A stretch of 45,938 nucleotides of DNA, from positions 1 to 45,938 of the IMG/VR virus record IMGVR_UViG_3300044580_000271; one strand, given 5' to 3'. The position numbers were made by a program, and so were the translations under genes. Within the stretch, counting starts at the first letter, position 1. Every line of letters starts with the position of its first letter. The notes under the pieces are model-generated. The model was not told where the DNA came from and did not search any database. It saw only the letters and a program-made list of their open reading frames with translations. Positions 3,529 through 42,984 of this stretch are shown piece after piece. The DNA is from a virus (lineage: Duplodnaviria > Caudoviricetes).

Positions 3529-6171
3529 TTAAAAAATCAATCTTATTTGAATTGAACTTCTGTCGGTTCCATTATAAGTGTATCTTGTATAATTAATTAT
3601 ATTTCCTTGTACGGTTTCGGTTACAGATGATGTTGTCCAATAACTTAATGATGTAGCTTGTGTTCCACCTTGGTATTCCCAAGATAATGTTAAGGTATTA
3701 TATGTTTGAATTCCTTGTAATGGTCTTGATGTTAGCCAAGCATTTGGAATTTCAAATTTTTGTTTATTTCCCCCACTTTCGGGAACCATATTATATACTA
3801 TATTATTTCCGGTTATCATTGACACTAAGGTTTGTTTTGTTAAAGTAGTTATATTTGTTGTTGTTCCAAACAATGGATATACTCCTTCAATGGTTCTTGT
3901 AATAATGGAGGTATTTCCAGCTGATAATGGTGTTGAATAATTATTTCCTTTACTATCTTTTGGCTGTACACCTGCATCATACGAAATATATGATGTCCAG
4001 GATTGATTTCCATTAATTACAACATAACTTGGATTTGATTGATTATCAGTTAATGATGTTGATAAAACTGATGAAGGTAATCCAGTTCCCGTATAATTAT
4101 AAGTATTTGGTAATCCACTTCTATAAGGACTAGCTGCTGTATATTGAGGATTTATTGAACCTCGATTAAATGTCGCAGTAAATGATAATGAAATATTTTG
4201 TGCTATTTCATATAAAGTTGTTGTAGGATTGATTGTGAATGATGAAGAAGGATTTGTTAAAGTAGGATATGCAGTAGGAAATAAAAGAGCATCCCATAAG
4301 CTACTTAATGTGTCACCGTCTAAATCATATACAGATGTGCCGGCAGGAATTCCACCAATAGTATTTGGCATTGTTATAGATGGGTCTAAAGAAGAATTAT
4401 AAATGCCTCCAGTCAAGGTTAGAATAGATACATCTTGAATTATTTGCCAAGCATATAATTCGTTTAATGAAGCATCTTGATTACTACCCTGAGCCCCTTG
4501 AAGTCCTTGAGTTCCTTGAATACCTTGTGATCCTTCAGTACCTTGAACCCCTTGTCCTGCAAAACCACCCGAAATACCTTGAGCACCTTGAATACCAAAT
4601 GTTCCCTGAGTTCCTTGAATACAAAGACCTTGAGGACCAATTTTTCCTTGAGCTCCTTGAATACTTAAACCTTGTATACCTTGAGTACCTTGTGTTCCTT
4701 GAACACCTAAACCTTGAGCACCTTCTCGTCCTTGAATACCTCTGGTTCCTTGTATGCCTTGAAGCCCATCTTCACCCTGCGTGCCTTGAACACCTAAACC
4801 TTGAGCTCCTACTAATCCTTGTATACCTCTAGATCCTTGTATACCTAATTTACCTTGAACACCTTGTGTTCCTTGAACACCTAAACCTTGAGCTCCTTCT
4901 CGACCTTGAATACCTCTAGTTCCTTGTGTGCCTAATTTACCTTGAACACCTTGAGTTCCTTGAACACCTAAACCTTGAGATCCTACAGTTCCTTGAATAC
5001 CTCTAGTTCCTTGTATACCTTGAATACCATCAGTTCCTTGAACTCCTTGAGAACCAATAATACCCTGAGAACCAATAATTCCTTGAATACCTCTGGTTCC
5101 TTGTAAACCTAATCTACCTTGAATTCCTTGAGTTCCTTGAATTCCTTGCGAACCAATTGTTCCTTGGATTCCTTGAACACCCAATGTTCCTTGAGTTCCT
5201 ATTCTTCCTTGAACTCCTATAATACCTTGTATACCTATTTGTCCCTGAATACCTTGGGCCCCTTGCACACCTAGAGTTCCTTGAGTTCCTGTTAATCCTT
5301 GTGATCCAATGGTGCCTTGAATACCTTGAGATCCACTTACTTCAAGATAACCGGAATCCCAATAGAAATCAGTACCTAAAGATGCTTCTGTAACACTTCC
5401 TATAGTACGATTATTATATAACCAATTTATTGAGGCATCACGGCTTGCTAAACTACCATCTATATAAATTTTTAATTGATCACAACAAGCGGTACTAACT
5501 TCTAAATATCCATTAGACCAATAAAAATCAGCTCCAAGAGATGAATCTAAAACGATGTTAGAATAAATATCCGGGTTTAATCTAAAAGTAATTAAACCTG
5601 AAGATGAATCGGTAACAATTATTCCTTGAGTTCCTATAACTCGTTTAAAATAAAAGGTAGTTCCAAATGAGGTATCAACACGACTATGGTAAACGCCAAC
5701 ATGACTTCCGTCTGGAACATCTAAAATATTTAAGCCAACATACGGACCTGTATGATTTGCTCTATCAAGATAATAATCCGGGCCTTCGCCTTTTAATGTA
5801 TCAGCATCTATTGAAACGTCTGAAGGAGGAACTGGGGGTGTTGGTGTATTACTATTATAATATACATACCATCTTAAAATATCCGCAGTATTATAACCAA
5901 GTCTTGTATATCTTATATGAAGATAGAAATCAGGGCGATCTCTAAATTCAATATTATTTAAATTGGTTTGTGTAAGAGTATTCCAATTTGTCCAAATAAT
6001 ATTATCAAATGAATATCTAAATTCTTTTTTAGTAAAAAGCCCGGATAAATCTTCTTCTTTAAAATATTGTATCTTTTGGACATGAAGAGGCTCTTCAGAA
6101 TCCTTTATTCCAGGACTAAAAAATTCTATTGTCTTTACATATTCATATCTTGCAAGCTGATATTGTAGCAT
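3529..6171 (-). CDS. Collagen-like (Gly-X-Gln) fibre protein
   Basis: Long GxQ triplet run (GIQGTQGSQ...) between globular domains. Confidence 0.8.
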   Translation of the reverse strand: MLQYQLARYEYVKTIEFFSPGIKDSEEPLHVQKIQYFKEEDLSGLFTKKEFRYSFDNIIWTNWNTLTQTNLNNIEFRDRPDFYLHIRYTRLGYNTADILRWYVYYNSNTPTPPVPPSDVSIDADTLKGEGPDYYLDRANHTGPYVGLNILDVPDGSHVGVYHSRVDTSFGTTFYFKRVIGTQGIIVTDSSSGLITFRLNPDIYSNIVLDSSLGADFYWSNGYLEVSTACCDQLKIYIDGSLASRDASINWLYNNRTIGSVTEASLGTDFYWDSGYLEVSGSQGIQGTIGSQGLTGTQGTLGVQGAQGIQGQIGIQGIIGVQGRIGTQGTLGVQGIQGTIGSQGIQGTQGIQGRLGLQGTRGIQGIIGSQGIIGSQGVQGTDGIQGIQGTRGIQGTVGSQGLGVQGTQGVQGKLGTQGTRGIQGREGAQGLGVQGTQGVQGKLGIQGSRGIQGLVGAQGLGVQGTQGEDGLQGIQGTRGIQGREGAQGLGVQGTQGTQGIQGLSIQGAQGKIGPQGLCIQGTQGTFGIQGAQGISGGFAGQGVQGTEGSQGIQGTQGLQGAQGSNQDASLNELYAWQIIQDVSILTLTGGIYNSSLDPSITMPNTIGGIPAGTSVYDLDGDTLSSLWDALLFPTAYPTLTNPSSSFTINPTTTLYEIAQNISLSFTATFNRGSINPQYTAASPYRSGLPNTYNYTGTGLPSSVLSTSLTDNQSNPSYVVINGNQSWTSYISYDAGVQPKDSKGNNYSTPLSAGNTSIITRTIEGVYPLFGTTTNITTLTKQTLVSMITGNNIVYNMVPESGGNKQKFEIPNAWLTSRPLQGIQTYNTLTLSWEYQGGTQATSLSYWTTSSVTETVQGNIINYTRYTYNGTDRSSIQIRLIF

Positions 6172-7849: not shown

Positions 7850-10079
7850 AAGCATTCGTTGTAGCATTTAACGATACTATATGTTTAGTTGAATTATCGA
7901 CTCGAATATGAAAATCTCTTGTTATTGATGTTTCAGTATCTACTGTAGCTGATAATATTGTTCCGGCATAAGGTGGTCTAACACCCACAGTTGATGAATG
8001 AGCCGCCCCATCCATAGTTAAATAACCAGCTACATTAGAATTAAGAGATGATCTGCCAAATGTATAAATTGTATGATCAGTTGATAATACTTTATTTCGA
8101 CTAGCGTCATAAATGTATAAATTCCCCCAACTTGCATCTAGCAAATCAGTTAATTGTTTTATCTCACTAATTGACGCATCTTGAACAATTTGCCAATCAA
8201 ATAGTTGGTTAATTGATAAATCTCTTTCTATTAATGACGAATCAATATAATTATAAATAGCATTTATTGATGTATCACTAATTGAGGTTCCTTGAGTTCC
8301 TTGAACACCTTGAATTCCTTGAGATCCTTCTACTCCTTGAGATCCTAAAGTTCCCTGCGTACCCTGTGATCCTTGAATTCCTTCAAGTCCTTGTGATCCT
8401 ATTGTTCCTTGGATTCCCTGAGTTCCTTGAATACCTTGAGTTCCAAAAGTTCCTTGTATACCAATTTGACCTTGAATACCTTGCGTGCCTTGGGTTCCTT
8501 GGGTTCCTTGAGCTCCTTGAATACCTGCAAGACCTTGAATTCCTATAGTTCCTTGTATACCTTGTGTTCCTTGTGTTCCTATTTTACCTTGAATACCTTG
8601 AACACCTTGAATACCTACAGTTCCTTGAATTCCCTGAACACCTTGCGTTCCTTGGGTTCCTTTAGTTCCAAAAGTTCCTTGAGTTCCAAAAGTTCCTTGA
8701 ATTCCTTGAGAACCTATAACACCTTGAACTCCTCGATTTCCTTGTACACCTTGCGTTCCTTGAGTTCCTTGTAAACCAATATGTCCATGAGCACCTTGTG
8801 TTCCTTGAACACCTTGAATTCCTTGTGTTCCTATTGTGCCTTGGATTCCTTCAAGTCCTTGTATACCAATTTCTCCTTGAATACCTTGGGCTCCTTGAAT
8901 TCCTATAGTTCCTTGAGTTCCTTGTGAACCTTGAATTCCTTGGGCACCTGTTGCTTGTAATAATCCATCAACCCATAGAAAATAGCTATGATTTAATGAT
9001 ACGTCTGGAATATAATTGGATCTTATATCATTTAATGATCCGTCAACATAAGCATAATCCATGGAAAGTACGCTGACATCCAAATACCCTAATGGATCCC
9101 ATACAAAGGCAGATCCTAAAGAGGATTCCCTTACATAAGCGTCAATAGCTTGTTTTCCATCTAATGCTTGCTGTAAACCAGTAATAGTATTAATAGGTTG
9201 TTGTCCCTTATGATTTGGTCTCCATAGATAATAAGATCCTGGTTGTCCATCTAAGGTTGTACAATCTCTAGAAATTGAGGTGTGACAAGATTCATCATAG
9301 TATTCTTGAGGACATGGTTTTGTTGGAATTATTGGTGCGGATGGTGTGCATGTAGTATCTTCTTTTGGAATAGTTGATGAATCATATTGTTTGTATGTTA
9401 AAGACATCTTAGAAATTTTAGCTTCCTGATTTGCCTTTACATATCTGAATTCAAAAAATAAAAATGGCTTATTTTTTAAATTTAAACTCGTTAAATTATT
9501 TTGATTTAATGGTTCCCACGCAGACCAATAATTCTTGTTATTGGACCATCTAAATTCTTTTTTATCAAATGAACCAGAAGAATCGTCTTTATAAAAACGA
9601 ATTTTTTCAACATTCTGAATAGGTGAGGAGTTCCTTAAAATAGTAATATTTCCTGAATCTGTTTTCGCAAAATTGGAAAAAACCTTTGTACTTACAGAAC
9701 TTGGCTGAGATGGCGAAGTTTGTTGTGTTGGCACAACATTTGGTTGAGGTGTTGATGTCTGCGAAGATGAAGAAGGGCTTGTAGAATCATAAGTTAGACT
9801 AAATGTAGATACCCCCGCTGATTGATTTGCCTTTACATATCTAATTTCAAGAAATAATCTTGACCCCTTTATTTGTAAATTCGTTAAATTTCCTTGATTT
9901 AATGATTCCCATGCTGACCAGTAATTGTTATTAAATGACCATCTGAACTCTTTTTTGTCAAAAGTACCATGAGAGTCATCTTTAAAAAATCGAATGTTCC
10001 CAATGTTTTCTATAGGAACACTATTCTTTAAAATAACTACGTTACCTGATTCAGATTTAACGAAATTAGAGAAAAGCAT
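7842..10079 (-). CDS. Collagen-like fibre protein with duplicated N-terminal domain
   Basis: Two copies of the FSNFxKxxSGN...KKEFRWS...WSAWE domain, then a GxQ run. Confidence 0.8.
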   Translation of the reverse strand: MLFSNFVKSESGNVVILKNSVPIENIGNIRFFKDDSHGTFDKKEFRWSFNNNYWSAWESLNQGNLTNLQIKGSRLFLEIRYVKANQSAGVSTFSLTYDSTSPSSSSQTSTPQPNVVPTQQTSPSQPSSVSTKVFSNFAKTDSGNITILRNSSPIQNVEKIRFYKDDSSGSFDKKEFRWSNNKNYWSAWEPLNQNNLTSLNLKNKPFLFFEFRYVKANQEAKISKMSLTYKQYDSSTIPKEDTTCTPSAPIIPTKPCPQEYYDESCHTSISRDCTTLDGQPGSYYLWRPNHKGQQPINTITGLQQALDGKQAIDAYVRESSLGSAFVWDPLGYLDVSVLSMDYAYVDGSLNDIRSNYIPDVSLNHSYFLWVDGLLQATGAQGIQGSQGTQGTIGIQGAQGIQGEIGIQGLEGIQGTIGTQGIQGVQGTQGAHGHIGLQGTQGTQGVQGNRGVQGVIGSQGIQGTFGTQGTFGTKGTQGTQGVQGIQGTVGIQGVQGIQGKIGTQGTQGIQGTIGIQGLAGIQGAQGTQGTQGTQGIQGQIGIQGTFGTQGIQGTQGIQGTIGSQGLEGIQGSQGTQGTLGSQGVEGSQGIQGVQGTQGTSISDTSINAIYNYIDSSLIERDLSINQLFDWQIVQDASISEIKQLTDLLDASWGNLYIYDASRNKVLSTDHTIYTFGRSSLNSNVAGYLTMDGAAHSSTVGVRPPYAGTILSATVDTETSITRDFHIRVDNSTKHIVSLNATTNAYD

Positions 10080-10144: not shown

Positions 10145-10306
10145 TTAAAAATGATTTAAATGTTCGTAATTTTTTGTGAAATTTTTGTCTTCGTCTAGAA
10201 TGCCAGCGTTAATAAGAGTATTGAGAGCTTCTTTTTTAGAAGTTCTCTTCTTTTTTGCTAATTTTTTTAACAAAACAATATCTTTATTTTTATTGCAATT
10301 CTTCAT
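10145..10306 (-). CDS. Small basic hypothetical protein (53 aa)
   Basis: Read manually: MKNCNKNKDIVLLKKLAKKKRTSKKEALNTLINAGILDEDKNF...; overlaps the upstream stop. Confidence 0.5.
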   Translation of the reverse strand: MKNCNKNKDIVLLKKLAKKKRTSKKEALNTLINAGILDEDKNFTKNYEHLNHF

Positions 10307-11327
10307 CAGAGAGAGTGGTCATGTCATCAAACTGAGAAAAGTTGTTAATTTTAGAAAAGTATTTGTTATTTCGTAGTTCTTCTTGTTTAGATGGGCACAT
10401 TTCATGAATCTTCTTGACTCTCATATGCTCTTTGACCATCTCATAAACTTCTTTCCAATCTGCTCCAATAGATTGAATCCAATCTTTATGTTTTTCAACT
10501 AACTTAGCAGAAACAAACTCATGACCATGTGCGGGCCAAGCCCCTGGCTTTGTAAAAGACTGTTTAGTAACATCAGCTTTTCCTAAATCATGAAATAAAG
10601 CGGCGACAGCATTATTCATGCCTCCCGTTTTACGGGCTCTATTGTAAACTATAGTAATATGTTTCAATACGTCACCTTCTGGATGCCAATAGGCACTTTG
10701 GGGGGTATTGCCACAACGTCTTAAATAGTCTTGTATTTCTTTTGGAGAGGCTTTTGATATTTCTTCAAATGTTGGTATGTAATTCATTGATTGTAAATTT
10801 TCTTTTACTATTCTTAAATTGGAAACTAACTCAAATCTTATATCTAAATGTGGATTTTTTCTTTTGGCTCTATTTATTATTGGCAAATAAGCATTTGTTA
10901 TTTCTTGTTCAGTAAATTCATTTCTGTATTCATCTAAAACTAAATTACTTTCTCCCATTCCTATCATATCAGTATTTCCAACTCTTTGAATACTAATAAA
11001 TTCAGTAGGTAATTTATGAATCCATCTATGGGGTACTGTAACTAAATTTTGAAATTGTAATGAATCTAAAATAGTTTGATGAATACAATTTGCTTTTATT
11101 GATAAATAAACATTTCCTTTTTTGTCTATAATTCCTCTTACATCCGGGGCGATATTACTTAAAGATGAAGGATTTACAATGACCTTAGCTTTTTCATTAA
11201 TGTCTATAATCTTATCTCTATTTTGAGCAATTTCATATTCTTGATTAAACTCATCAAATTCATCAGGAATATAAAATCTTTTAGAAGCATAAACATCACC
11301 TATGCCTTCTCTAACAATTTTAGTCAT
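10290..11327 (-). CDS. Two-domain protein with C-terminal HD phosphohydrolase (type found with CCA-adding enzymes)
   Basis: Q..YWHPEGDVLKH...ALFHDLGK...HGHE...HM motifs. Confidence 0.75.
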   Translation of the reverse strand: MTKIVREGIGDVYASKRFYIPDEFDEFNQEYEIAQNRDKIIDINEKAKVIVNPSSLSNIAPDVRGIIDKKGNVYLSIKANCIHQTILDSLQFQNLVTVPHRWIHKLPTEFISIQRVGNTDMIGMGESNLVLDEYRNEFTEQEITNAYLPIINRAKRKNPHLDIRFELVSNLRIVKENLQSMNYIPTFEEISKASPKEIQDYLRRCGNTPQSAYWHPEGDVLKHITIVYNRARKTGGMNNAVAALFHDLGKADVTKQSFTKPGAWPAHGHEFVSAKLVEKHKDWIQSIGADWKEVYEMVKEHMRVKKIHEMCPSKQEELRNNKYFSKINNFSQFDDMTTLSDEELQ

Positions 11328-11397
11328 TGAATAAACTTTTATTTATTTATTCAATAAAAATGGCGCTCAAGATTTTCGTTTCTTACTATTAAATCTG

Positions 11398-11529
11398 TTA
11401 ATTATAAAGCTGATCCGGATCACTTAATGGAAGAGCTTCACGTAAAATCATTAAACTTCCACGATGAACGTACTTATCAAAATGAAGTTCAGTATTATCT
11501 TTTTCCAAATGAATCTTTGTTTCTGACAT
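11398..11529 (-). CDS. Small hypothetical protein (43 aa, possibly frameshifted)
   Basis: MSETKIHLEKDNTELHFDKYVHRGSLMILREALP...; coding-like sequence continues in another frame to ~11351. Confidence 0.35.
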   Translation of the reverse strand: MSETKIHLEKDNTELHFDKYVHRGSLMILREALPLSDPDQLYN

Positions 11530-11992
11530 AATTATTTAGTATTCGTAAGACTTCTGCATTTGGTAAAATGTGTTTATTGTTTATTTTGAAATACTCTTTA
11601 TCTCCTCTTAAGTAATCTAAGGCAAATTGCCCAATTGCCCCACTCCTGCTTATTCCAGCTGCACAATGTACCAATAGAACTTTTACATCTTTATTGTTAT
11701 CAAGAAAATTAACTACGCGTTTTGCATCTTCTTCAGTAAAAGCTCTAGTTTTCCCTGAATTTGTTGGGGAAATTTCTAAATCGTTTTTAACATCATCGAA
11801 AAAAAGATTGAGTACATTATGGTGAGGCTGGGTAAATAAAGGTGTGTGATAATAATTTCCTTCAGTATCATTGATGCAAATAAATGCATAATTTATTATA
11901 GCATCAACAGAATCATCGTTGATGTTATTTCTTTCTAATACTTCCTGAAATTGAACTTTTGGAAACACGTAAATTTTTACTTTCTCATCCAT
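11495..11992 (-). CDS. Cys-dependent (PTP/dual-specificity) phosphatase
   Basis: HCAAGISRS CX5R P-loop; upstream FDD general-acid motif. Confidence 0.85.
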   Translation of the reverse strand: MDEKVKIYVFPKVQFQEVLERNNINDDSVDAIINYAFICINDTEGNYYHTPLFTQPHHNVLNLFFDDVKNDLEISPTNSGKTRAFTEEDAKRVVNFLDNNKDVKVLLVHCAAGISRSGAIGQFALDYLRGDKEYFKINNKHILPNAEVLRILNNYVRNKDSFGKR

Positions 11993-11995
11993 AAA

Positions 11996-13156
11996 TTATG
12001 TTTTATATTTTTCAACTATTTCTTTTGCTTTATTTAATCTGTAGGTTTTTTCTAAAATAAATTGAACTTTTTTAGTCTTGTATTTATTCTTATCATCGAT
12101 ATAAGCTCTCATGAAATCGAAATAAGGTTCTTTATGACAATTAGTTGCAAATTTAGCAAAATCACCATTGAATTCTGTTAAAAATCTGTTAAAAAGAGCT
12201 TCAACCTTTGAATCAATATGTGATGCATAATTATCAATAGCTTTGGTAACCATATTGATAAAATCAAAAGCATCTTTATCTTCTATTGGATTTAATTGAG
12301 ATACTAAATCATCCAATGTTTCCCTGTAGTAATTCTCAATGACATAATCTTCTCTAAATACGTTCATAGTTCTTAAACCATGAACAGTAAAGTACCACTG
12401 AGTCTTGACCTTCAACAACATACCGTCATCAAAAATAACTACCCACCCCTCTTTATCTTCCTCTACCTTTGATTTTTCAATCAATTGATCAAGAGTAAAT
12501 GATTCGTTTTTAATAAAGTACATGGTAGTTGGAATATTGCTTACTTCTGAAGCAGGGATATAGTCACCATTACTATTATTTCTCAATCCAATGAATCTAA
12601 GTTCTGGACTTCCATATTTAAGTACAATTCTATTAGCATAGGAAACATATTCGAAGAGAGGAGTAAATCCATCTTCAAGTTGTTTTTTAACCCATTTTGT
12701 GTGGTCTTCCCATGCAAACAATAATTGCTGTGATGATATTACTTGTTCATTATCAAATCCTCGTATAGTTTTGGCAAATAATTTTCCGTTTGGTAACATC
12801 ATAAATGCAACCAATGAACCATCTTCCTTTGAAGAAATATGCACAATATTCTTATCTTTAACTTTATCATACTGAGTTTCCTCTATCTGATTTATGTTAA
12901 AGAATTTAGGAAGCATTAAATATCGATTGAAAATAGTTCCATCTTCATTGAATACAAACGTAACTCCTCTCATATCGAAAGCAGTGATATTTGGTTCATT
13001 TGGAAGTGGGTTTGCAAAATGGTTATAGCCACATATAAAGTAATCAAATGCTGAAATTTTGTAGTTGTCTATTCTCCACATATGTTCAGAAAAATTGAAG
13101 TTGTTGTAATACTTGCAAATCTTCTGTGCGTCATTATATGTGACTAAATACTTCAT
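11996..13156 (-). CDS. T4 Rnl1-family RNA ligase
   Basis: RGxxF, KFFN, motif I KEDGS, FEY...NRIV, EGWV, KVK motifs. Confidence 0.85.
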   Translation of the reverse strand: MKYLVTYNDAQKICKYYNNFNFSEHMWRIDNYKISAFDYFICGYNHFANPLPNEPNITAFDMRGVTFVFNEDGTIFNRYLMLPKFFNINQIEETQYDKVKDKNIVHISSKEDGSLVAFMMLPNGKLFAKTIRGFDNEQVISSQQLLFAWEDHTKWVKKQLEDGFTPLFEYVSYANRIVLKYGSPELRFIGLRNNSNGDYIPASEVSNIPTTMYFIKNESFTLDQLIEKSKVEEDKEGWVVIFDDGMLLKVKTQWYFTVHGLRTMNVFREDYVIENYYRETLDDLVSQLNPIEDKDAFDFINMVTKAIDNYASHIDSKVEALFNRFLTEFNGDFAKFATNCHKEPYFDFMRAYIDDKNKYKTKKVQFILEKTYRLNKAKEIVEKYKT

Positions 13157-17234: not shown

Positions 17235-17462
17235 ATGGCAACAAAGAAGATCACACATGAATTTATCGCATTACTTGTTAAGGCAAAGTGTTCGAAGACT
17301 GAAAAGGAATTTACTGTACCAGTGGGACAGTGGGATATTTATTCACATGAACAGGAATGCGAAATTTGTGGTTCTCATGGAGAAATGATAGTTGATATTC
17401 ATTGCCCAGAATGTGGTCAGACTCATTCACATGTTTTAAAAAGATGGAGAAATGACAGTTGA
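17235..17462 (+). CDS. Small zinc-ribbon protein
   Basis: CEICG and CPECG motifs. Confidence 0.6.
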   Translation: MATKKITHEFIALLVKAKCSKTEKEFTVPVGQWDIYSHEQECEICGSHGEMIVDIHCPECGQTHSHVLKRWRNDS

Positions 17463-17510
17463 TATTCATTGCCCAGAATGTGGTCAGACTCATTCACATG
17501 TTTTAAAAAG
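17377..17510. repeat. 67-bp tandem duplication with one mismatch
   Basis: 17377-17443 versus 17444-17510 (gata vs gaca). Confidence 0.9.
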
Positions 17511-17535: not shown

Positions 17536-17898
17536 ATGAAATTCAAAATGACAAATTTCAGCAAGAACATCAGGATTGATTTAAGTGATCGAGAAGTACA
17601 TGTTCCAAAGAAAGAAAAATTCAAAGTAGTTAGAGAAGGAGAAGAATGGAATTCTCAATCAAATATATCTATGCTTTTTGGGTTAAGTGTTTTAGTTGCT
17701 CTTATATTTATGTTTATAAGTATAGCTGCTATAAACAAAGAATGGGAGTCTGTCGGTATTTGGTGCTTAATAACGTTTTTGATGTGTGCGTTGACATTGT
17801 TTATAGGTATACTAAAATATGAGTTTAAATGGCAGACATGGATATGGGTCTTTAATACTATTTTATGGTTTTTTAATACAATTTTACACATTGGATAA
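17536..17898 (+). CDS. Membrane protein (about 3 TM)
   Basis: Three hydrophobic segments. Confidence 0.6.
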   Translation: MKFKMTNFSKNIRIDLSDREVHVPKKEKFKVVREGEEWNSQSNISMLFGLSVLVALIFMFISIAAINKEWESVGIWCLITFLMCALTLFIGILKYEFKWQTWIWVFNTILWFFNTILHIG

Positions 17899-18277
17899 GA
17901 TATTAATCATAGTAAGAGGAATTCCTGGATGTGGAAAATCGACTTTCGCAAAGCTTCTGGGCCGTGCTATTTGCACAGCTGATGATTATCTAACAAGAAA
18001 CGGAAAGTACGAATGGTCTAGAGAAAATACTGGAAAGGCCCATGCATGGTGTCAGAGAAAATGTGAAAGATTCATGAAATCAAGAATAACTCCTGTCATT
18101 GTGGCCAATACTTCTACGACTGAAAAAGAACTTCATCCTTATTATGATTTAGCTAATAAATATGGTTTTGAAGTTTTCTCTATTATTGTTGAAAATCGTC
18201 ATAACGGCATTAATGAACATAATGTTCCAGAAGAAACTCTTGAAAAAATGAGAAATCGTTTTGATATTAAATTATAA
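17891..18277 (+). CDS. P-loop polynucleotide-kinase-like protein (AAA_33)
   Basis: RGIPGCGKST Walker A, ADD, VANT, HNVP motifs; TTG start inferred. Confidence 0.8.
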   Translation: MDKILIIVRGIPGCGKSTFAKLLGRAICTADDYLTRNGKYEWSRENTGKAHAWCQRKCERFMKSRITPVIVANTSTTEKELHPYYDLANKYGFEVFSIIVENRHNGINEHNVPEETLEKMRNRFDIKL

Positions 18278-24316: not shown

Positions 24317-24681
24317 AATCCAACGTTTTAAAAGGAAAAAGTCAAAAGGAAATAATTGATGCCTTTTGTGCTAAACATAATATTGCTAGTTATGAATGGT
24401 CGGAATTTATCCATCAATTAGGAAGGATTCCGCTACAAAAGAATCTTCATTTGGTTTGGACCATCCCGCTTTTCCTAATTGGAATTACGGCTTTATTCAC
24501 TACATTTGGATTTCTTTTTGATGATCAATTTCCAGTCATTTATAAAATAGCCGAAAAAGCTACACCAACATTTTTTCAAAGATTTGTGAATATATTTTAC
24601 GCATTATTGCTATTCATCATTCCATCAATTATTATAGCAATCCCGATAATAAAATGGAATAAAGTATATGGTTGGAGTTAA
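24313..24681 (+). CDS. 2-TM membrane protein
   Basis: LKGKSQKEIIDAFC N-terminus and two TMs. Confidence 0.6.
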   Translation: MKSNVLKGKSQKEIIDAFCAKHNIASYEWSEFIHQLGRIPLQKNLHLVWTIPLFLIGITALFTTFGFLFDDQFPVIYKIAEKATPTFFQRFVNIFYALLLFIIPSIIIAIPIIKWNKVYGWS

Positions 24682-24689
24682 ATGCTGTT

Positions 24690-25796
24690 ATGAAACAATA
24701 TACTATAAAAGAATTAAAAGAAAAAAATCTCATTATCTTTGAAGCGATAATGGGGTCTCATGCTTATGGAACTGTTCTTCCAACTTCAGATAAAGATGTT
24801 CGCGGGGTTTGGATGCAGCCATTTGAAGATATACTTCAATACGGTTATGCAGAACAGGTTGCAGATGAAAAGAATGATGTTGTTTATTACGAACTTAGAC
24901 GATTCATAAATCTTCTTCGTGATAATAATCCAAATATTGTTGAAATTCTTTTTGCACCCGAAGATTGTATTCTTACCACATCTGACGAATGGAAGATTCT
25001 CAAATCAGTCGACAAGAAATTTCTAACGCAGAAATGTCGTTGGACTTTTGCCGGTTATGCTATTGATCAAATCAAAAAAGCAAGAAGTTACAACAAGAAG
25101 ATGAACTGGGAAGAAGCCCAGATGGTTCGCAAAGGAGTTCTTGATTTTTGCTATATTCTTGATGAAGGCGGATCAACACCTCTTCACGATTGGTTGATAA
25201 GATTTAATGACTCTAAAATCGATATGTATGATCAACGAGACTTTAGTCTTGCTGCGATAGATCATGCTAAGGATGTTTATGCAATGTATCAATTTCCAGG
25301 AGGAATTGTTTCGGATGTCAACACAGCTAATGATGTTCAACTTCAGTCCATCCCAAAAGGCATACTTCCTACCGCGTATTTAACGTTTAATAAGGATGCA
25401 TATTCAACTCATTGTACACGTTACAAGGAATATCAAACATGGCTTAAAGAGCGTAATGAAGACCGTGTGAAAATGAATAAAGCACACAGAAAGAATTATG
25501 ACTCAAAAAACATGATGCACACTTTTCGCCTGCTTAAAGTTGCAATTGAAATTGCAAGAACAGGAAATCTAAATGTTCGTCGTTCACCTGAAGAAATTGA
25601 AGTTCTTATGAAAATTCGTCATGGAGAATATGAATATGATGATCTCCTTCGTGAAGCAGAAGAAATGATTAAGAATCTGGATGATGAGTATGACAAGTCA
25701 ATTCTTCCTGATAAAGTTGATGAATACTATGCAACATCTATTTTATTTGAAATGAGAAAGAAAAGATATGGTTTTAAAAACAACATTATACCTTGA
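24690..25796 (+). CDS. Pol-beta-superfamily nucleotidyltransferase (Nuc-transf/RlaP-like)
   Basis: GSHAYG...SDKDVRG, NNPNIVEIL, YDSKNMMHTFRLL. Confidence 0.8.
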   Translation: MKQYTIKELKEKNLIIFEAIMGSHAYGTVLPTSDKDVRGVWMQPFEDILQYGYAEQVADEKNDVVYYELRRFINLLRDNNPNIVEILFAPEDCILTTSDEWKILKSVDKKFLTQKCRWTFAGYAIDQIKKARSYNKKMNWEEAQMVRKGVLDFCYILDEGGSTPLHDWLIRFNDSKIDMYDQRDFSLAAIDHAKDVYAMYQFPGGIVSDVNTANDVQLQSIPKGILPTAYLTFNKDAYSTHCTRYKEYQTWLKERNEDRVKMNKAHRKNYDSKNMMHTFRLLKVAIEIARTGNLNVRRSPEEIEVLMKIRHGEYEYDDLLREAEEMIKNLDDEYDKSILPDKVDEYYATSILFEMRKKRYGFKNNIIP

Positions 25797-38722: not shown

Positions 38723-38764
38723 TTCGAACCTATTTTGAATATATAGTAGAAATAGGTTCGAATG
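38723..38764 (+). promoter_or_regulatory. 13-bp hairpin reaching the endonuclease start codon, promoter-like loop
   Basis: ttcgaacctattt / aaataggttcgaa; loop contains gaatatata. Confidence 0.7.
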
Positions 38765-39277
38765 AAAATCTGTGAAAATTGTAATAAAGAACACAATGGT
38801 TCTTATGGTAAAGGTAGATTTTGTTCTAAAACGTGTGCTAAATCATTTAGCACCAAAGAAAAAAGATTAGACATAAATATTAAAATAAGTCAAAAGCTAA
38901 AAGGATGTAAATCACCAAAACGAAAGGAGCCAAAAAAATGTTTGAATTGTGGAAATGATTGCCATAAAAAATTCTGTTCAGTTGAGTGTTATAAATTATA
39001 TTATCAAACATTACGAACTGCATTTGAAAATTATAAAATTAAATCACAATTTAAATTTAATGTTTATGATTATCCGAATTATTTTGAACTAATTCTGATT
39101 GAAAAATACGGGTGGTATTCTCCAACAAATAATCTTAATGGAGTTTCAAGAGATCATTTATATTCTGTTAAAGACGGATTTATAAATAATATTGACTGCA
39201 AAATAATTTCACACCCAGCCAATTGTAAATTAGTTCTTCATAAAGATAATCAAAAAAATATAAAAATTCATCTATAA
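38762..39277 (+). CDS. HNH-like homing endonuclease with N-terminal Zn-binding repeats (C-terminus probably frameshifted)
   Basis: CxxC...FCS..C repeats; SRDH...HPANC...HKDN. Confidence 0.7.
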   Translation: MKICENCNKEHNGSYGKGRFCSKTCAKSFSTKEKRLDINIKISQKLKGCKSPKRKEPKKCLNCGNDCHKKFCSVECYKLYYQTLRTAFENYKIKSQFKFNVYDYPNYFELILIEKYGWYSPTNNLNGVSRDHLYSVKDGFINNIDCKIISHPANCKLVLHKDNQKNIKIHL

Positions 39278-39384: not shown

Positions 39385-39541
39385 AAACTGTAGTAATGTT
39401 AAGAGTTACTTCGTAGCTTTGGGAGCCGGTATCGCAAGATGTGGAGGTTCAAGTCCTTCTTCCCCGCACAGATATTCGCGGGGAATGGTGAAATGGTAGA
39501 CACGCCGTAAGAAAAAATACTCTAAACGAGTTTCTCAGTTT
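39385..39541 (+). ncRNA. Scaffold-A RNA carrying a circularly permuted Leu-type tRNA mimic
   Basis: aaactg/cagttt closing stem; order is variable arm, T-arm, loop-closed acceptor, D-arm. Confidence 0.75.
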
Positions 39542-39556
39542 TTATTTTATTTTTAT

Positions 39557-39632
39557 GCCGGCATAGTTCAGTAGGTAGAGCAGCTGTCTTGTAAACAGCA
39601 GGTCGGGGGTTCGAATCCGTCTGCCGGCTCCA
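39557..39632 (+). tRNA. tRNA-Thr(TGT)
   Basis: gctgt-ctTGTaa-acagc; encoded CCA. Confidence 0.92.
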
Positions 39633-39634
39633 AT

Positions 39635-39773
39635 GGGGAGAAAGTTTAAAAAAGAAAAAACACTCTAGTTGACTTTCTCATGTAAATGTAGTAATAACGA
39701 AGAGTTACTTCGAAGGTAAAACGTTAGTTTTGAAATACTAAATTTGTTGGTTCAAATCCAGCTCTCCCCGCCA
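39635..39773 (+). ncRNA. tRNA-like RNA with permuted scaffold A inserted in the D-loop; 8-nt anticodon loop
   Basis: ggggaga/tctcccc-g-cca; gttt/aaac D-stem enclosing 71 nt; intact T-arm. Confidence 0.75.
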
Positions 39774-39777
39774 AATA

Positions 39778-39854
39778 AAGTTGTAGTAATAAGAAGAGAT
39801 ACATCGTAGCTCCATAAATTACCACAAAAAACTCTTTTTTGAATTTCTCAACTT
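39778..39854 (+). ncRNA. Scaffold-A RNA, minimal copy
   Basis: aagttg-tagtaa...aagagatacatcg...actct...tttctc-aactt. Confidence 0.7.
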
Positions 39855-39932: not shown

Positions 39933-40047
39933 CTGAGTGAACATTGTGGAGTTAGTGTAATGGTAGCACGCCCGGCGGGTGTCTGGGAAGACTGGTTCGA
40001 ATCCGGTACCATGATCGACACAATTGACTGTAGGGAATAGACCTACA
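39933..40047 (+). ncRNA. Scaffold-B RNA with a degenerate colinear tRNA insert
   Basis: ctgagtgaaca...tcgacac-aattgac-tgtagg-gaataga-cctaca; D-arm and T-arm inside. Confidence 0.7.
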
Positions 40048-40053
40048 AAAAAT

Positions 40054-40125
40054 TGCCCTATAGCACAATGGCCAGTGCACGGGACTTTGGATCCTGGGAT
40101 TCACGTTCGAGTCGTGGTGGGGCAG
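40054..40125 (+). tRNA. tRNA-Gln(TTG)
   Basis: cggga-ctTTGga-tcctg. Confidence 0.9.
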
Positions 40126-40251
40126 CTGAGTGAACATCGTCATTAAAGAGAGTTGAGGGTTCAAATCCCTCATATCGGTTCATAAACTGATATTAGTGTA
40201 ACGGTAACATACTGCAACGATCAACACGATTGACAGCAGGGAAAGACCTGC
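40126..40251 (+). ncRNA. Scaffold-B RNA with a circularly permuted tRNA mimic
   Basis: T-arm gaggg-ttcaaat-ccctc, closed acceptor atatcggtt-cata-aactgatat, then D-arm gtgt-aacggta-acat. Confidence 0.75.
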
Positions 40252-40255
40252 AAAA

Positions 40256-40329
40256 CGGGGTATAGCACAGTTGGTAGCGCGCATGCTTTGGGAGCATGAG
40301 GTCGTCGGTTCGAGCCCGGCTACCCCCGA
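40256..40329 (+). tRNA. tRNA-Pro(TGG)
   Basis: catgc-ttTGGga-gcatg; one extra C in the 3' acceptor strand. Confidence 0.88.
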
Positions 40330-40407
40330 CTGAATCAACAGCGTCAACGGGGGCCAGTTGGTGGCCCTGCGGTCCGTTCTAGATGATTGACTTCAGGGAA
40401 AGACCTG
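40330..40407 (+). ncRNA. Scaffold-B RNA, short copy
   Basis: ctgaatcaaca...gattgac-ttcagg-gaaaga-cctg; insert gggcca-gttgg-tggccc. Confidence 0.65.
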
Positions 40408-40411
40408 TAAC

Positions 40412-40493
40412 GCCCCCATAGGAGAATTGGTATATCCACCTGGCTTAGGACCAGGCGTCTATGACATTGAGAGTTCGAGTCTCTCTGGGGGCA
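40412..40493 (+). tRNA. tRNA-Leu(TAG)
   Basis: cctgg-ctTAGga-ccagg; long variable arm. Confidence 0.9.
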
Positions 40494-40500
40494 CAAATTT

Positions 40501-40541
40501 CATGGTTAACTCAAATATATAAAGTAAAAGAGTTAACCATG
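40501..40541 (+). promoter_or_regulatory. 12-bp hairpin sequestering the HNH start codon
   Basis: catggttaactc / gagttaaccatg; loop contains atatataa. Confidence 0.75.
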
Positions 40542-40967
40542 AATAAAAAAGAATTAGATAACGAAATTATTCAGGCTTGCAAAAAAAGTAGAACAATGTC
40601 TGAAGCATCAAAAATTATTGGAATTCCATATTCCACATTTAAACGAAAAACAATATTATTGGGTTTATGGAAACCAAATCAAGGAGGAAAAGGAATCGCA
40701 AATATATCACTTGAAGATGTATTTAATGGAAAAAAATATCTTAGAAGTTATCAATTAAAAAATAAATTAATTGCAGAAGGGTATAAAGAAGCAAAATGTG
40801 AAGAATGTGGATTAGGAGAAGAATGGAATGACAAAATTCTTGTACTAGAATTAGACCACATAAATGGAAATAAAAGGGATAATAGATTAGAAAATTTAAA
40901 AATATTGTGTCCAAATTGTCATTCACAAACACCAACTTTTAGAGGAAGAAAAAATGGAAATGAATAA
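40539..40967 (+). CDS. HNH homing endonuclease
   Basis: CEECG...LELDHINGNKRDNRLENLKILCPNCH; the ORF-track start overlaps tRNA-Leu, so 40539 is used. Confidence 0.9.
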   Translation: MNKKELDNEIIQACKKSRTMSEASKIIGIPYSTFKRKTILLGLWKPNQGGKGIANISLEDVFNGKKYLRSYQLKNKLIAEGYKEAKCEECGLGEEWNDKILVLELDHINGNKRDNRLENLKILCPNCHSQTPTFRGRKNGNE

Positions 40968-41129
40968 ACAATTTTTACAGTTTTTAGATTCATTAATTCA
41001 TAGTAAAAATTTTAATTTTCGATATAGATTAAAATTAAAAATTTCGACCCAAGGAAAAAATTTATGCAGCAGTATTTGATGAAAGAAGGATTAATGAACT
41101 TATAAATAATAATTTTCATGAATTGTAAT

Positions 41130-41202
41130 GCTCGGTTCGTCTAGTGGTCAGGACATCAGGTTTTCATCCTGGGGATCAGGGGTTCGACCCCCCTACCGAG
41201 TA
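41130..41202 (+). tRNA. tRNA-Glu(TTC)
   Basis: tcagg-ttTTCat-cctgg. Confidence 0.9.
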
Positions 41203-41207
41203 CAAAT

Positions 41208-41289
41208 GTTGCGTTATACAAGCGGCCAAAGTGGTCAGACCTTCAATCTGATTCGTAATGATTCGCGGGTTCGAATCCCGCACGCAATA
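41208..41289 (+). tRNA. Atypical long-variable-arm tRNA, anticodon TTC, C33; identity uncertain
   Basis: gttgcgt/acgcaat acceptor; tcaga-ccTTCaa-tctga; extended variable region. Confidence 0.65.
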
Positions 41290-41290
41290 C

Positions 41291-41377
41291 GTCCAAATGG
41301 TGGAATTGGTAGACACGCTAGCTTGAGGGGCTAGTGCCATAACAGGTTTGGGGGTTCGAGTCCCCCTTTGGACACCA
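41291..41377 (+). tRNA. tRNA-Leu(GAG)
   Basis: ctagc-ttGAGgg-gctag; encoded CCA. Confidence 0.92.
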
Positions 41378-41380
41378 AAT

Positions 41381-41461
41381 GCCGACGTTGAGCAATTGGC
41401 TGGCTCGCCTGACTGTAGATCAGGTCCTTCGGGCGTAGGGGTTCGAGTCCCTTCGGCGGCA
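41381..41461 (+). tRNA. tRNA-Tyr(GTA), variant with G37
   Basis: cctga-ctGTAga-tcagg; one A.G mismatch in the acceptor. Confidence 0.8.
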
Positions 41462-41581
41462 CAAAAGGTTAGTAATTCGGACGCCTAACCAGCAGAAGGA
41501 TGAAGTTTCCTTGGCGAAATTGATCGAAACAGTCTTGGTGGTTCTTGTACATGTCGTGATAAAGTGACCAAAAACTATAAC

Positions 41582-41654
41582 GGAGTCTTGGCAGAGTTGG
41601 TCAACGCGCTGGACTGAAAATCCAGAGATCCAGGTTCGATCCCAGGAGGCTCCA
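41582..41654 (+). tRNA. tRNA-Phe(GAA)
   Basis: ctgga-ctGAAaa-tccag. Confidence 0.88.
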
Positions 41655-41741
41655 CAAAAAATTTTCAAAAATATTTTTTTATTTGAAAACTTTTGATTAC
41701 ATTAGCCTTAGAATAAAAAACAGTTCTTTGATAAAGATACT

Positions 41742-42036
41742 TGGCTTAATCAGGCGCCCGTAGGGCGTATGGTCGTCGATTACCGAACCTCGGTTTACGA
41801 TCAATGATAATGAGAGTTGTAGTTCAAGAATGTAGCGTAAAGTTACTGCAGACTGCAATAGAAATTAGCCTGGTAGGAAATCCTCGGATTCCTATTAATC
41901 TCAATAGTAAGAGGACGTGAGAGATTATTAAGTCATTTACAGATTGGGGAATAGGTAGAGTGGTCTTCGACCGGTGGTAACTTGCAAGACCTGACTTTAG
42001 AAAACCGGCATGGGCGCGGGTGGCCCAACCCAATCT
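41742..42036 (+). ncRNA. Unassigned ~295-nt multi-hairpin RNA
   Basis: Closing stems tggcttaat/attaagtca and agattggg/cccaatct; many internal hairpins; own promoter-like site and boxA-like site upstream. Confidence 0.6.
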
Positions 42037-42039
42037 AAC

Positions 42040-42127
42040 GGGGCGATACCGAAGTGGCCAAACGGGCCCTGCCGTAAACAGGGTGGCTCTACGGAGTCTT
42101 CGATGGTTCGAATCCATTCTCACCCCA
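42040..42127 (+). tRNA. tRNA-Tyr(GTA), variant with C33
   Basis: ccctg-ccGTAaa-caggg; long variable arm; C.A mismatch in the acceptor. Confidence 0.8.
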
Positions 42128-42151
42128 CAAAAGATGTTCTTTGAAAATACT

Positions 42152-42456
42152 TGATTCAGCTAGGAGTGACCAAAATTTAGATTAAATTAGAATTAATTAG
42201 TAAATGATGAAGAGGTTAAATTCCTCAAAAACAGACGGTTCGATTCCGTCGGCGGCTTTACCGTTAAAGGATGTAATATTAGATAATAATATGATAAAAA
42301 CGGTCCTATTAGGTCTATGCTTAAATGAAACTCCTTTAGGGTTCTAGATACCTAACACTTTCTCTAAGATTGTATGCCTTCGGGCTGGATGGAGAGAATG
42401 GATCAAAAGTGGCTGATGTCATTTAGTTGTGCTAGGATTCGCGATCTTAGCACAAC
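42152..42456 (+). ncRNA. Unassigned ~300-nt structured RNA with an internal T-arm
   Basis: tcagcta/tggctga closing stem; gacgg-ttcgatt-ccgtc; 13-bp terminal hairpin at 42426-42456. Confidence 0.5.
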
Positions 42457-42460
42457 AATC

Positions 42461-42543
42461 GGGAAGGTACCGAAGCGGTCAACCGGGACAGACTGTAAAT
42501 CTGTTGGCTTAGGCCTTCGTAGGTTCGAATCCTGCCCTTCCCA
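42461..42543 (+). tRNA. tRNA-Tyr(GTA), canonical
   Basis: acaga-ctGTAaa-tctgt; gggaagg/ccttccc acceptor. Confidence 0.92.
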
Positions 42544-42588
42544 CCTCACTTTTTGTACCTTGAACATAGATATATAAAATAAAAATCT

Positions 42589-42984
42589 ATGCCAAGAAAA
42601 CAAAAAGTTTATAACGTTCTTTATAAAACTACTTGTTTGATTACAAATCGATATTATATCGGTATGCATTCAACAAATAATTTAAATGATGGTTATTTAG
42701 GAAGTGGTTCTCACTTACGATATTCAGTTAATAAATATGGAGCTGAAAATCATAAATTTGAAATTCTCGAACAACTTCCAAATAGAAGTTCTTTAAAAAA
42801 TAGAGAAAAAGAAATTGTTAATGAAGAAATGCTTAAAGACCCTTTGTGCATGAATTTAAAACCTGGTGGAGAAGGAGGTCTTAGCAATCCAATTCATCGA
42901 AAAAAATTTCTTGAAGCAGGTACTTTGGCTGCTTCAAAGAGTGTAAGAGAAATGCAACACAGTGGGTGGGAATGGGTGATTTAA
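42589..42984 (+). CDS. GIY-YIG (Seg-like) homing endonuclease, short
   Basis: VLYKTT...YYIGMHST...YLGSG...E...MNL. Confidence 0.85.
   Translation: MPRKQKVYNVLYKTTCLITNRYYIGMHSTNNLNDGYLGSGSHLRYSVNKYGAENHKFEILEQLPNRSSLKNREKEIVNEEMLKDPLCMNLKPGGEGGLSNPIHRKKFLEAGTLAASKSVREMQHSGWEWVI

Follow-up and report, generated by a model that had tools for sequence, protein, structure and literature searches.

The Y RNAs described in the literature dock on Ro60 by means of their paired ends, and they are without either an anticodon or a free acceptor end. In the available sections of PMC4201824, the defining features of YrlA are GNCGAAN0-1G as a motif, a conserved YUAY, parts in the order V-T-acceptor-D, and a distance of at most about 4 kb from the Ro60 gene; Bacteroidetes YrlA are included there, the 22 phages are Bacillus, Caulobacter, and Mycobacterium phages, and the YrlA of Mycobacterium smegmatis is described as acquiring a CCA end after RNase P cleavage. 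A phage Ro60 binds a stem-bulge-stem with CGAA and recruits the host PNPase, according to the available part of PMC12135203. The accessible text of PMC7790460 connects rsr-yrlBA-rtcBA with tRNA damage and proposes that YrlA acts as a competitive inhibitor, and it reports that Salmonella YrlA itself is uncut by the anticodon nuclease studied. In the parts available, PMC7824862 places phage TROVE among RNA repair genes, and in bioRxiv 10.1101/2024.10.10.617714 the Ro60-like gene of Bas63, which lies beside tRNA-like genes, counters the Ppl defence. Known RNA permutations are catalogued in PMC10085705, with Y RNAs not among them in the portion available. In a literature search on phage tRNAs, Y RNAs, and Ro60, with most subscription papers outside it, no paper was found that reports a Ro60 stem within a whole tRNA.

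The DNA analysed here (the window) is a virus record of 45,938 bases with a tRNA cluster at 39.3-42.6 kb, as located by ARAGORN. An RNA encoded on the + strand at 39635-39773 starts 2 nt past the CCA of a tRNA-Thr (39557-39632), and it is real and conserved, and likely a Ro60-docking mimic of a whole tRNA. Its parts, all on the + strand, follow the order of a tRNA, with the putative docking stem within the D-loop. The acceptor stem (39635-39641/39763-39769) has seven of seven pairs and is followed by the discriminator G (39770) and an encoded CCA (39771-39773), both read from the sequence. The D-stem of four pairs (39644-39647/39719-39722) encloses 71 nt. The anticodon arm (39724-39741) has a stem of five pairs (39724-39728/39737-39741) and an 8-nt loop (39729-39736) with one U more than the GAA loop of the ortholog L158; the variable region (39742-39745) and a normal T-arm (39746-39762) complete the body. 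The anatomy proposed in the initial annotation, namely the perfect acceptor, G73 with CCA, the intact T-arm, the D-stem around 71 nt, and the 8-nt anticodon loop, is thus borne out by the coordinates.

The 5' part of the D-loop with an A-rich linker (39648-39661) is the counterpart of the 3'-side A-rich linker in copies of ordinary order. It is followed by strand Y of the stem (39662-39679), which would be the 3' strand of an ordinarily ordered Y RNA and consists of a covarying inner helix strand and an invariant pyrimidine strand (39674-39679). The stem cap (39680-39687), two pairs with a GNRA loop at 39682-39685, occupies the site of the free 5' and 3' ends in ordinary Y RNAs; a variant in run X1 has 39683 altered with the GNRA preserved. 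Strand X (39688-39714), the 5' strand in ordinary order, was compared by eye with published Y RNA layouts, and it contains a bulged-helix motif (39688-39694) with a bulged U at 39689 and a U-U mismatch, an inner helix strand (39700-39705), a YUAY-type core (39704-39712), and CGAA at 39711-39714. The 3' part of the D-loop (39715-39718) carries G18-G19, which were counted by eye in 24/24 relatives with the stem in the D-loop, seven of which use the last G of the core for this purpose. Overall, the RNA has the long stem with a bulged helix and a large internal loop by which Y RNAs are broadly recognized.

The expectation that standard scanners would miss such an RNA also held, as ARAGORN called 14 tRNAs in the window, that at 39635-39773 not among them, and Rfam at gathering level gave no match there, the best being a 23-bit tRNA match to the 3' part. 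At E <= 10, no Rfam family was found for the D-loop insert, including ribozyme, intron, and YrlA families. The single-sequence fold of 39635-39773 is modestly better than that of shuffled sequences (z -2.5), and at minimum energy the D arm comes out mispaired. The structure rests on covariation.

Relatives were collected by scanning viral, metagenome, and genome contigs for patterns, which gave 196 loci, many of them redundant and some of them chance matches. Many scan rows were chance matches inside genes and were removed by eye before alignment. The sources retained were 33 named for one alignment and 38 for the parsing of inside-out RNAs, and 11 of the 47 rows of alignment A2 were removed as doubtful, duplicate, or long-cargo. 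For the inside-out stems (n=36), 91.9% of cells are paired and 9/17 pairs change on both sides, with 0/500 shuffles matching the covariation score and slid controls 24-54% paired. For the ordinary-order stems (n=36), 89.6% of cells are paired and 12/19 pairs change on both sides, again with 0/500 shuffles. These covariation scores are inflated by relatedness, and the letters used in the search are invariant by construction. When the structures are slid, pairing drops to about half or less in both orders. Since the pairs around the bulged U are invariant, covariation neither supports nor contradicts them. The insert in the D-loop is a rod of nested, covarying pairs, and owing to this nesting a pseudoknot reading was rejected.

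The initial annotation had also noticed that the scaffold stands in permuted order inside the D-loop, and its halves do recur in the window in the opposite order, at 39389-39537 and 39782-39850 and nowhere else on either strand. The first sister copy (39385-39541, + strand; 44 bits, E 7e-8) has the order X-cargo-Y and encloses a circularly permuted tRNA-Pro with a UGG anticodon, a long variable arm, an 8-pair acceptor, and a 3-pair D-stem, the 3' half of which (39416-39468) precedes the 5' half (39478-39507). A near-identical copy is found at L012, and the unusual combination of features is preserved in the relatives L012 and L043. The second sister copy (39778-39854, + strand), a model match also of ordinary order, encloses a 17-nt anticodon-like hairpin (39806-39822) with CAU in the loop. 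Among the wider family, the ordinary-order cargoes are hairpins of 13-30 nt, the loops of which are often anticodon-like by eye, a hairpin with a variable arm, a T arm with an acceptor, D-anticodon-T bodies without an acceptor, and full permuted tRNAs.

In public contigs, 38 distinct inside-out RNAs were parsed in tRNA bodies, all of them with an acceptor of seven pairs and a T-arm, the 5' strand of the acceptor being taken as the best-pairing 7-mer; one more locus, L163, failed to parse. By eye, the stem sits in the D-loop in 24 of the 38, at the acceptor/D junction in eight, and in the anticodon stem in two, and it replaces the D arm in four. The putative docking stem acts as a portable module, joined to a whole tRNA at any of four sites. 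The complete genome G003 has one inside-out copy without the 3' half of the tRNA. A blastn search of the cluster against 50,697 phage records gave only ordinary tRNA matches among the matches listed. The tRNA cluster of the window is interrupted by an HNH-type ORF (40461-40967, Pfam HNH match) and by two endonuclease-like ORFs (38762-39277 and 42589-42984), neither of which has a Pfam match. In a relative (L013:1-345), an endonuclease-like ORF is inserted between the tRNA-Thr and the ortholog of the 39635-39773 RNA.

Since the permuted tRNA cargo resembles that of bacterial Y RNAs, Ro60 was searched for near the copies of the motif. TROVE is present in 4/5 motif-bearing virus records, 1/5 further fragments, 2/4 inside-out records, and 3/5 genomes. 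The proteins on motif-bearing records are 559-575 residues long and combine TROVE with vWA, so that the putative partner in the motif-bearing relatives is a true Ro60 ring. The best PDB sequence match of the protein of this clade is Ro60 of Thermus phage phiLo (E 5e-14), and with a low-confidence model (pLDDT 56) 13/13 Foldseek matches at E <= 0.001 are Ro60/TROVE structures. Among cultured phage records, only distant relatives of the clade's Ro60 were found, the best at 34%.

A search with model R1 (E <= 1e-4) placed the stem upstream of Ro60 and in the same orientation at 38 of 42 viral loci, which are redundant, belong to one clade, and were reached through motif-bearing contigs; 29 of the 39 distinct matched sequences lie outside the training set. 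Of the four loci without a match, two offer less than 400 nt of upstream sequence, a third is truncated by the contig edge, and the last is the most divergent. On the opposite strand, seven weak R1 matches (E 0.07-0.15) lie at the gene end. A regular expression finds the stem in 28/42 viral Ro60 loci, compared with one match in 210 shuffled loci. Copies of the D-loop type are found upstream of Ro60 at 1276 nt in G168 and at 469 nt in G169, and most copies in these phages lie in tRNA clusters at least 10 kb from Ro60. The Ro60 gene is absent from the 46-kb window and from its closest relatives, G006 and G007, which are fragments 12-15% complete. G171, which is 89-90% like 40088-42952 of the window, carries the Ro60 of the clade about 10.7 kb further on; therefore, the counterpart in the window would fall beyond the window end if the gene order is the same. 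A family of ORFs of about 65 aa is often located between a short Y-like RNA and the Ro60 gene (L214:3530-3721, L224:2541-2741, L234:3746-3943, L235:3746-3943, and L225:3123-3371). In G169, the D-loop Y-like RNA and the Ro60 gene are directly preceded by a GOLLD RNA (281 bits; L302:2934-3348).

The cellular sample comprised 150 genomes of the phylum of G011, ten of them with TROVE, and the sole R1 match lies directly upstream of a TROVE gene, i.e. in one of the ten Ro60-positive genomes. Ro60 loci of Bacteroidota contain tandem arrays of one to five RNAs that share the inner core, some with the canonical T-acceptor-D order. A cellular pattern of the core matched 7/10 Ro60-positive and 3/140 Ro60-negative genomes, with three control matches; as the pattern was drawn from the Ro60 positives, only its negative side is a test. 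From the distribution of core-bearing Ro60 loci, the phage host would be a member of Bacteroidota. Model R2, built on the inside-out stem and run over 53 sources in a search for such stems at cellular Ro60 loci, gave strong matches for the window and two training loci, and the weaker matches that could be placed are junctions between tandem ordinary copies. Tandem ordinary copies set strand Y beside strand X of the next copy, with which it would pair, and thus the inside-out form may have had a simple origin by duplication.

The acceptor, anticodon, and T stems stay paired in the D-loop relatives (n=24), and the letters of the anticodon stem change. The loops, of 6 to 9 nt, show CAU, GAU, GAA, UGA, GUG, and other anticodons, which differ on near-identical bodies. 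The discriminator is A in 20/24, G in 3/24, and U in 1/24, position 8 is A (for U8) in 15/24, and CCA is encoded in 4/24. The 8-nt anticodon loop is the same in L001 and L013, and there is no indel at this place in runs X1 and X5; however, the closest ortholog (L158) has a 7-nt GAA loop, and therefore the 8-nt loop is a trait of the lineage and not a conserved one. The 39635-39773 RNA departs from a canonical decoding tRNA, which has U8, a D-loop of 7-11 nt, and an anticodon loop of 7 nt, in its A8, its 71-nt D-loop, and its 8-nt anticodon loop. The Trp-like identity first proposed for it finds no support, as the loop is without a CCA anticodon and, although G73 is present, a discriminator G is found in only 3/24 relatives. 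Overall, the tRNA body is preserved, though not as a decoder.

Since the conserved hairpin adjoins the Ro60 gene in related phages and bacteria, the 39635-39773 RNA is likely an inside-out Y RNA. In the explanation that we consider probable, the complete tRNA body with its D-loop hairpin is an inside-out Y RNA that would dock on Ro60, retain its stem, and serve as a tRNA decoy. It would be a circularly permuted Y RNA, the docking stem of which is capped by GNRA and the ends of which are a native tRNA acceptor with CCA. RNase P would release it from the transcript of the tRNA cluster by a cut at 39635. Folded as an L, the RNA would project the rod from the D-loop immediately ahead of G18-G19, and because of this position of the insert the elbow would be intact. 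The stem would stay in the mature RNA and dock on the phage Ro60 ring, and the tRNA elbow, anticodon loop, and CCA end would be displayed as a decoy for host defences that cut tRNA; within a Ro60 repair particle, the RNA would divert or competitively inhibit them. The cargo classes mirror the known kinds of Y RNA, and varying anticodons on near-identical bodies are as expected of decoys. Across the family many anticodons are displayed, often as the anticodon hairpin alone. The decoy role by itself is more tentative and falls somewhat short of an even chance; the main alternative role for a docked RNA may be the tethering of Ro60 to PNPase or another tRNA-binding factor.

The initial annotation had regarded the tRNA as the carrier of a scaffold and had offered two readings of the insert, a permanent domain or a removable intron-like element. 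The carrier and permanent-domain readings gained support, the scaffold being the likely Ro60-docking stem of Y RNAs, and the intron-like reading lost ground. As an intron, the stem would be cut at its base by a nuclease, perhaps guided by Ro60, and a phage RNA ligase would join the halves to give a working tRNA, while the copies of ordinary order would be permuted tRNA genes with a circular intermediate in their maturation; both parts of this proposal are unlikely. It draws on 12 copies in which removal of the stem restores a continuous anticodon stem of five pairs and a 7-nt loop, i.e. a perfect anticodon arm, in a set selected on that very test. Removal would also leave G18-G19 and a D-loop of normal length in the 39635-39773 RNA, and processing of YrlA to a canonical tRNA has been raised as a possibility (bioRxiv 10.1101/312249). 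The phage, moreover, encodes an RNA repair kit of an HD protein, a phosphatase-like protein, and Rnl1 (10290-13156, - strand), together with a P-loop kinase and RlaP. Within this kit, a T4 Rnl1-type RNA ligase gene lies at 11996-13156 on the - strand (PF09511, E 2e-18), and on the + strand the AAA_33 P-loop kinase gene, probably polynucleotide-kinase-like, is at 17819-18277 (PF13671, E 4e-11) and the gene of the RlaP RNA-repair nucleotidyltransferase at 24672-25796 (PF10127, E 3e-21). However, in the same 12 copies the offset of the 3' junction from the C of the core is at most 0 in five, +1 in two, and at least +4 in five. A self-splicing intron would need fixed cut sites, and since these offsets are incompatible a fixed-site ribozyme intron was rejected. 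The same stem also holds 13-30-nt hairpins, minihelices, and acceptor-less bodies, from which excision gives no tRNA, and the spliced product of 39635-39773 would keep A8 and the 8-nt loop. An ortholog without the insert gave no match to an exact gapped pattern in viral contigs, the only sequences searched. No joint across any copy was found in eight runs (of 23 listed, all as contigs), a weak test at low depth, and an RNA-library contig of a relative crosses its permuted copy unspliced, also at low depth. In the improbable event that this proposal holds, the stem would be a Ro60-marked, protein-dependent tRNA intron removed by a nuclease and the phage ligase, and working tRNAs would come from D-loop-interrupted or permuted genes by tRNA splicing of a kind that is not known from bacteria. 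Such tRNA genes would be hidden from scanners, and Ro60 could gate their release.

It is less probable still that the stem docks on another protein and that the RNA is the tRNA mimic of some other particle, the adjacency to Ro60 being an inherited neighbourhood. The two mismatches of the 5' motif with the published Ro60 motif, the distance of most copies from Ro60 within tRNA clusters, and the ORF of about 65 aa so often found between a short copy and Ro60 would all fit this proposal, but phages and cellular genomes alike show the association with Ro60 although the neighbouring genes differ, and in the cellular genomes the core pattern, itself drawn from those positives, falls from seven of the ten Ro60-positive genomes to the control level in the Ro60-negative ones. 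It is highly improbable that the insert is a very small ribozyme, self-splicing or self-cleaving, that occurs in both a normal and a permuted version. Two circular permutations with invariant internal-loop letters do recall small ribozymes, as far as the available part of PMC10085705 describes them; against this stand the lack of any Rfam ribozyme or intron match at E <= 10, the lack of a constant cut site relative to the core, the simple nested rod, and the tight association with Ro60. There is as little probability that the RNA is a functionless, decaying tRNA pseudogene with an acquired Y RNA fragment. The non-canonical A8 and 8-nt loop and the G003 copy lacking its tRNA 3' half would agree with decay, as would the finding of no RNA contig over 39635-39773 in the six RNA runs examined, which is a weak test for short modified RNAs (runs X1 and X5 are probably DNA). 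Random decay among orthologs, named in the initial annotation as evidence that would speak against its proposal, is opposed by the pairing preserved in the acceptor, anticodon, and T stems of the 24 divergent D-loop relatives and by the compensatory changes in the inserted stem across the inside-out copies.

Two further regions of the tRNA cluster, and two repeats elsewhere in the window, were recorded. A second, unrelated scaffold occurs in three copies (39933-40048, 40126-40253, and 40330-40410), each of which ends in a conserved hairpin, and it has three kinds of cargo like those of the first: a plain hairpin, a permuted tRNA, and a tRNA body of weak acceptor, which ARAGORN mis-calls as tRNA-Thr(ggt). 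In a close relative the 5' strand of the copy contains CGAA, the 3' hairpin is also present in other phage contigs, and there is no Rfam match at E <= 10; this scaffold is possibly another module of the Y RNA type. A long structured non-coding stretch at about 41725-42455 (z -3.65), in which a tRNA-Tyr-like gene (42040-42128) is embedded, is a candidate large ncRNA. Near-identical contigs of depth 9-260 are present in 4/4 RNA runs, far above the upstream cluster. The stretch is conserved with indels in G171, a 21-base probe matches three viral contigs only, and no Rfam family was found for the RNA at 41.7-42.4 kb at E <= 10, apart from a 10-bit tmRNA end. A 67-nt tandem duplication, 99% identical, lies at 17377-17510, and repeats with a period of 9 nt at 4487-5334 and 8290-8930, in minus-strand ORFs, encode collagen-like Gly-X-Gln triplets.

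These observations indicate that phage tRNA clusters contain RNAs that scanners miss or mis-call. The sister copies display single tRNA parts, unlike the inside-out copies with a whole tRNA, and such a panel of cargoes brings within reach of tests the function of the tRNA module of Y RNAs and the reason for Ro60 in phages, with anticodon nucleases, synthetases, RNase P, and PNPase as the factors against which the cargoes can be tried one by one.

In algae and archaea, permuted and intron-containing tRNA genes resemble this family in the inverted halves (as at 39385-39541) and in an insert at a non-canonical position. The algal and archaeal tRNAs are cut by a splicing endonuclease at bulge-helix-bulge sites. 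The junctions here, in contrast, are A-rich with no bulge-helix-bulge seen by eye, and no splicing endonuclease was seen among the 30 window proteins scanned. The nearest solved relative of the clade's protein is phiLo Ro60 with Yrl1 and Yrl2 (PDB 9KOP, 9L5Y; PMC12135203); in the available sections of that paper, the Y RNAs lie upstream of the gene and have CGAA at a large internal loop, comparable with 39711-39714, whereas no tRNA module is described there for the phiLo RNAs and CGAA is not conserved in the 39635-39773 family. The layouts of Deinococcus Yrn1 and Yrn2 and of YrlB (RF01053), as given in the available part of PMC4201824, are matched by the acceptor-less D-anticodon-T members and by the short hairpins, and two cellular loci score 36-43 bits on RF01053. 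The 39635-39773 RNA differs from these in retaining a full acceptor stem with free ends and, as far as those sections go, in its motif letters.

YrlA (RF02553; Salmonella, Mycobacterium smegmatis, and mycobacteriophages) shares with this RNA the long stem, the bulged helix, the YUAY-type core, the A-rich linker, and a tRNA module, and at the level of the family there are several RNAs per locus, near the Ro60 gene and on the same strand. In the part of the YrlA seed alignment compared by eye, the spacing of motif, stem, YUAY, and A-rich linker is the same as in X and Y. The phage 5' motif differs from GNCGAAN0-1G at two positions, its commonest form being that of 19/39 copies; the C of the motif is restored in cellular copies that share the core, and the 39635-39773 RNA also has CGAAG at 39711-39715, with CGAA following the core in only 7/33 parsed copies. 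YUAY follows the inner stem at 39705-39708, and the commonest core is that of 20/33 parsed copies. Five core-bearing loci, one of them a phage copy with a permuted tRNA, score 34-47 bits on the Rfam YrlA model, three of them across the whole model, compared with a gathering score of 69. In the available text of PMC4201824 and bioRxiv 10.1101/312249, the 5' and 3' ends of YrlA pair with each other to make the stem, which takes the place of the anticodon arm; the parts are ordered T-acceptor-D, without an anticodon loop. In contrast, the 39635-39773 RNA has a loop-capped stem in the D-loop of a whole tRNA in normal order, with an anticodon arm and an encoded CCA. Its stem is closed by the GNRA cap and its ends are those of the acceptor, whereas both sister copies form the stem from their ends, and it shows no V-T-acceptor-D order without an anticodon loop. 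Since it departs from YrlA in two defining features, the end-formed stem and the permuted order without an anticodon, it is regarded as a variant and not as a member of RF02553, and it is predicted, with good likelihood, to work like a Y RNA.
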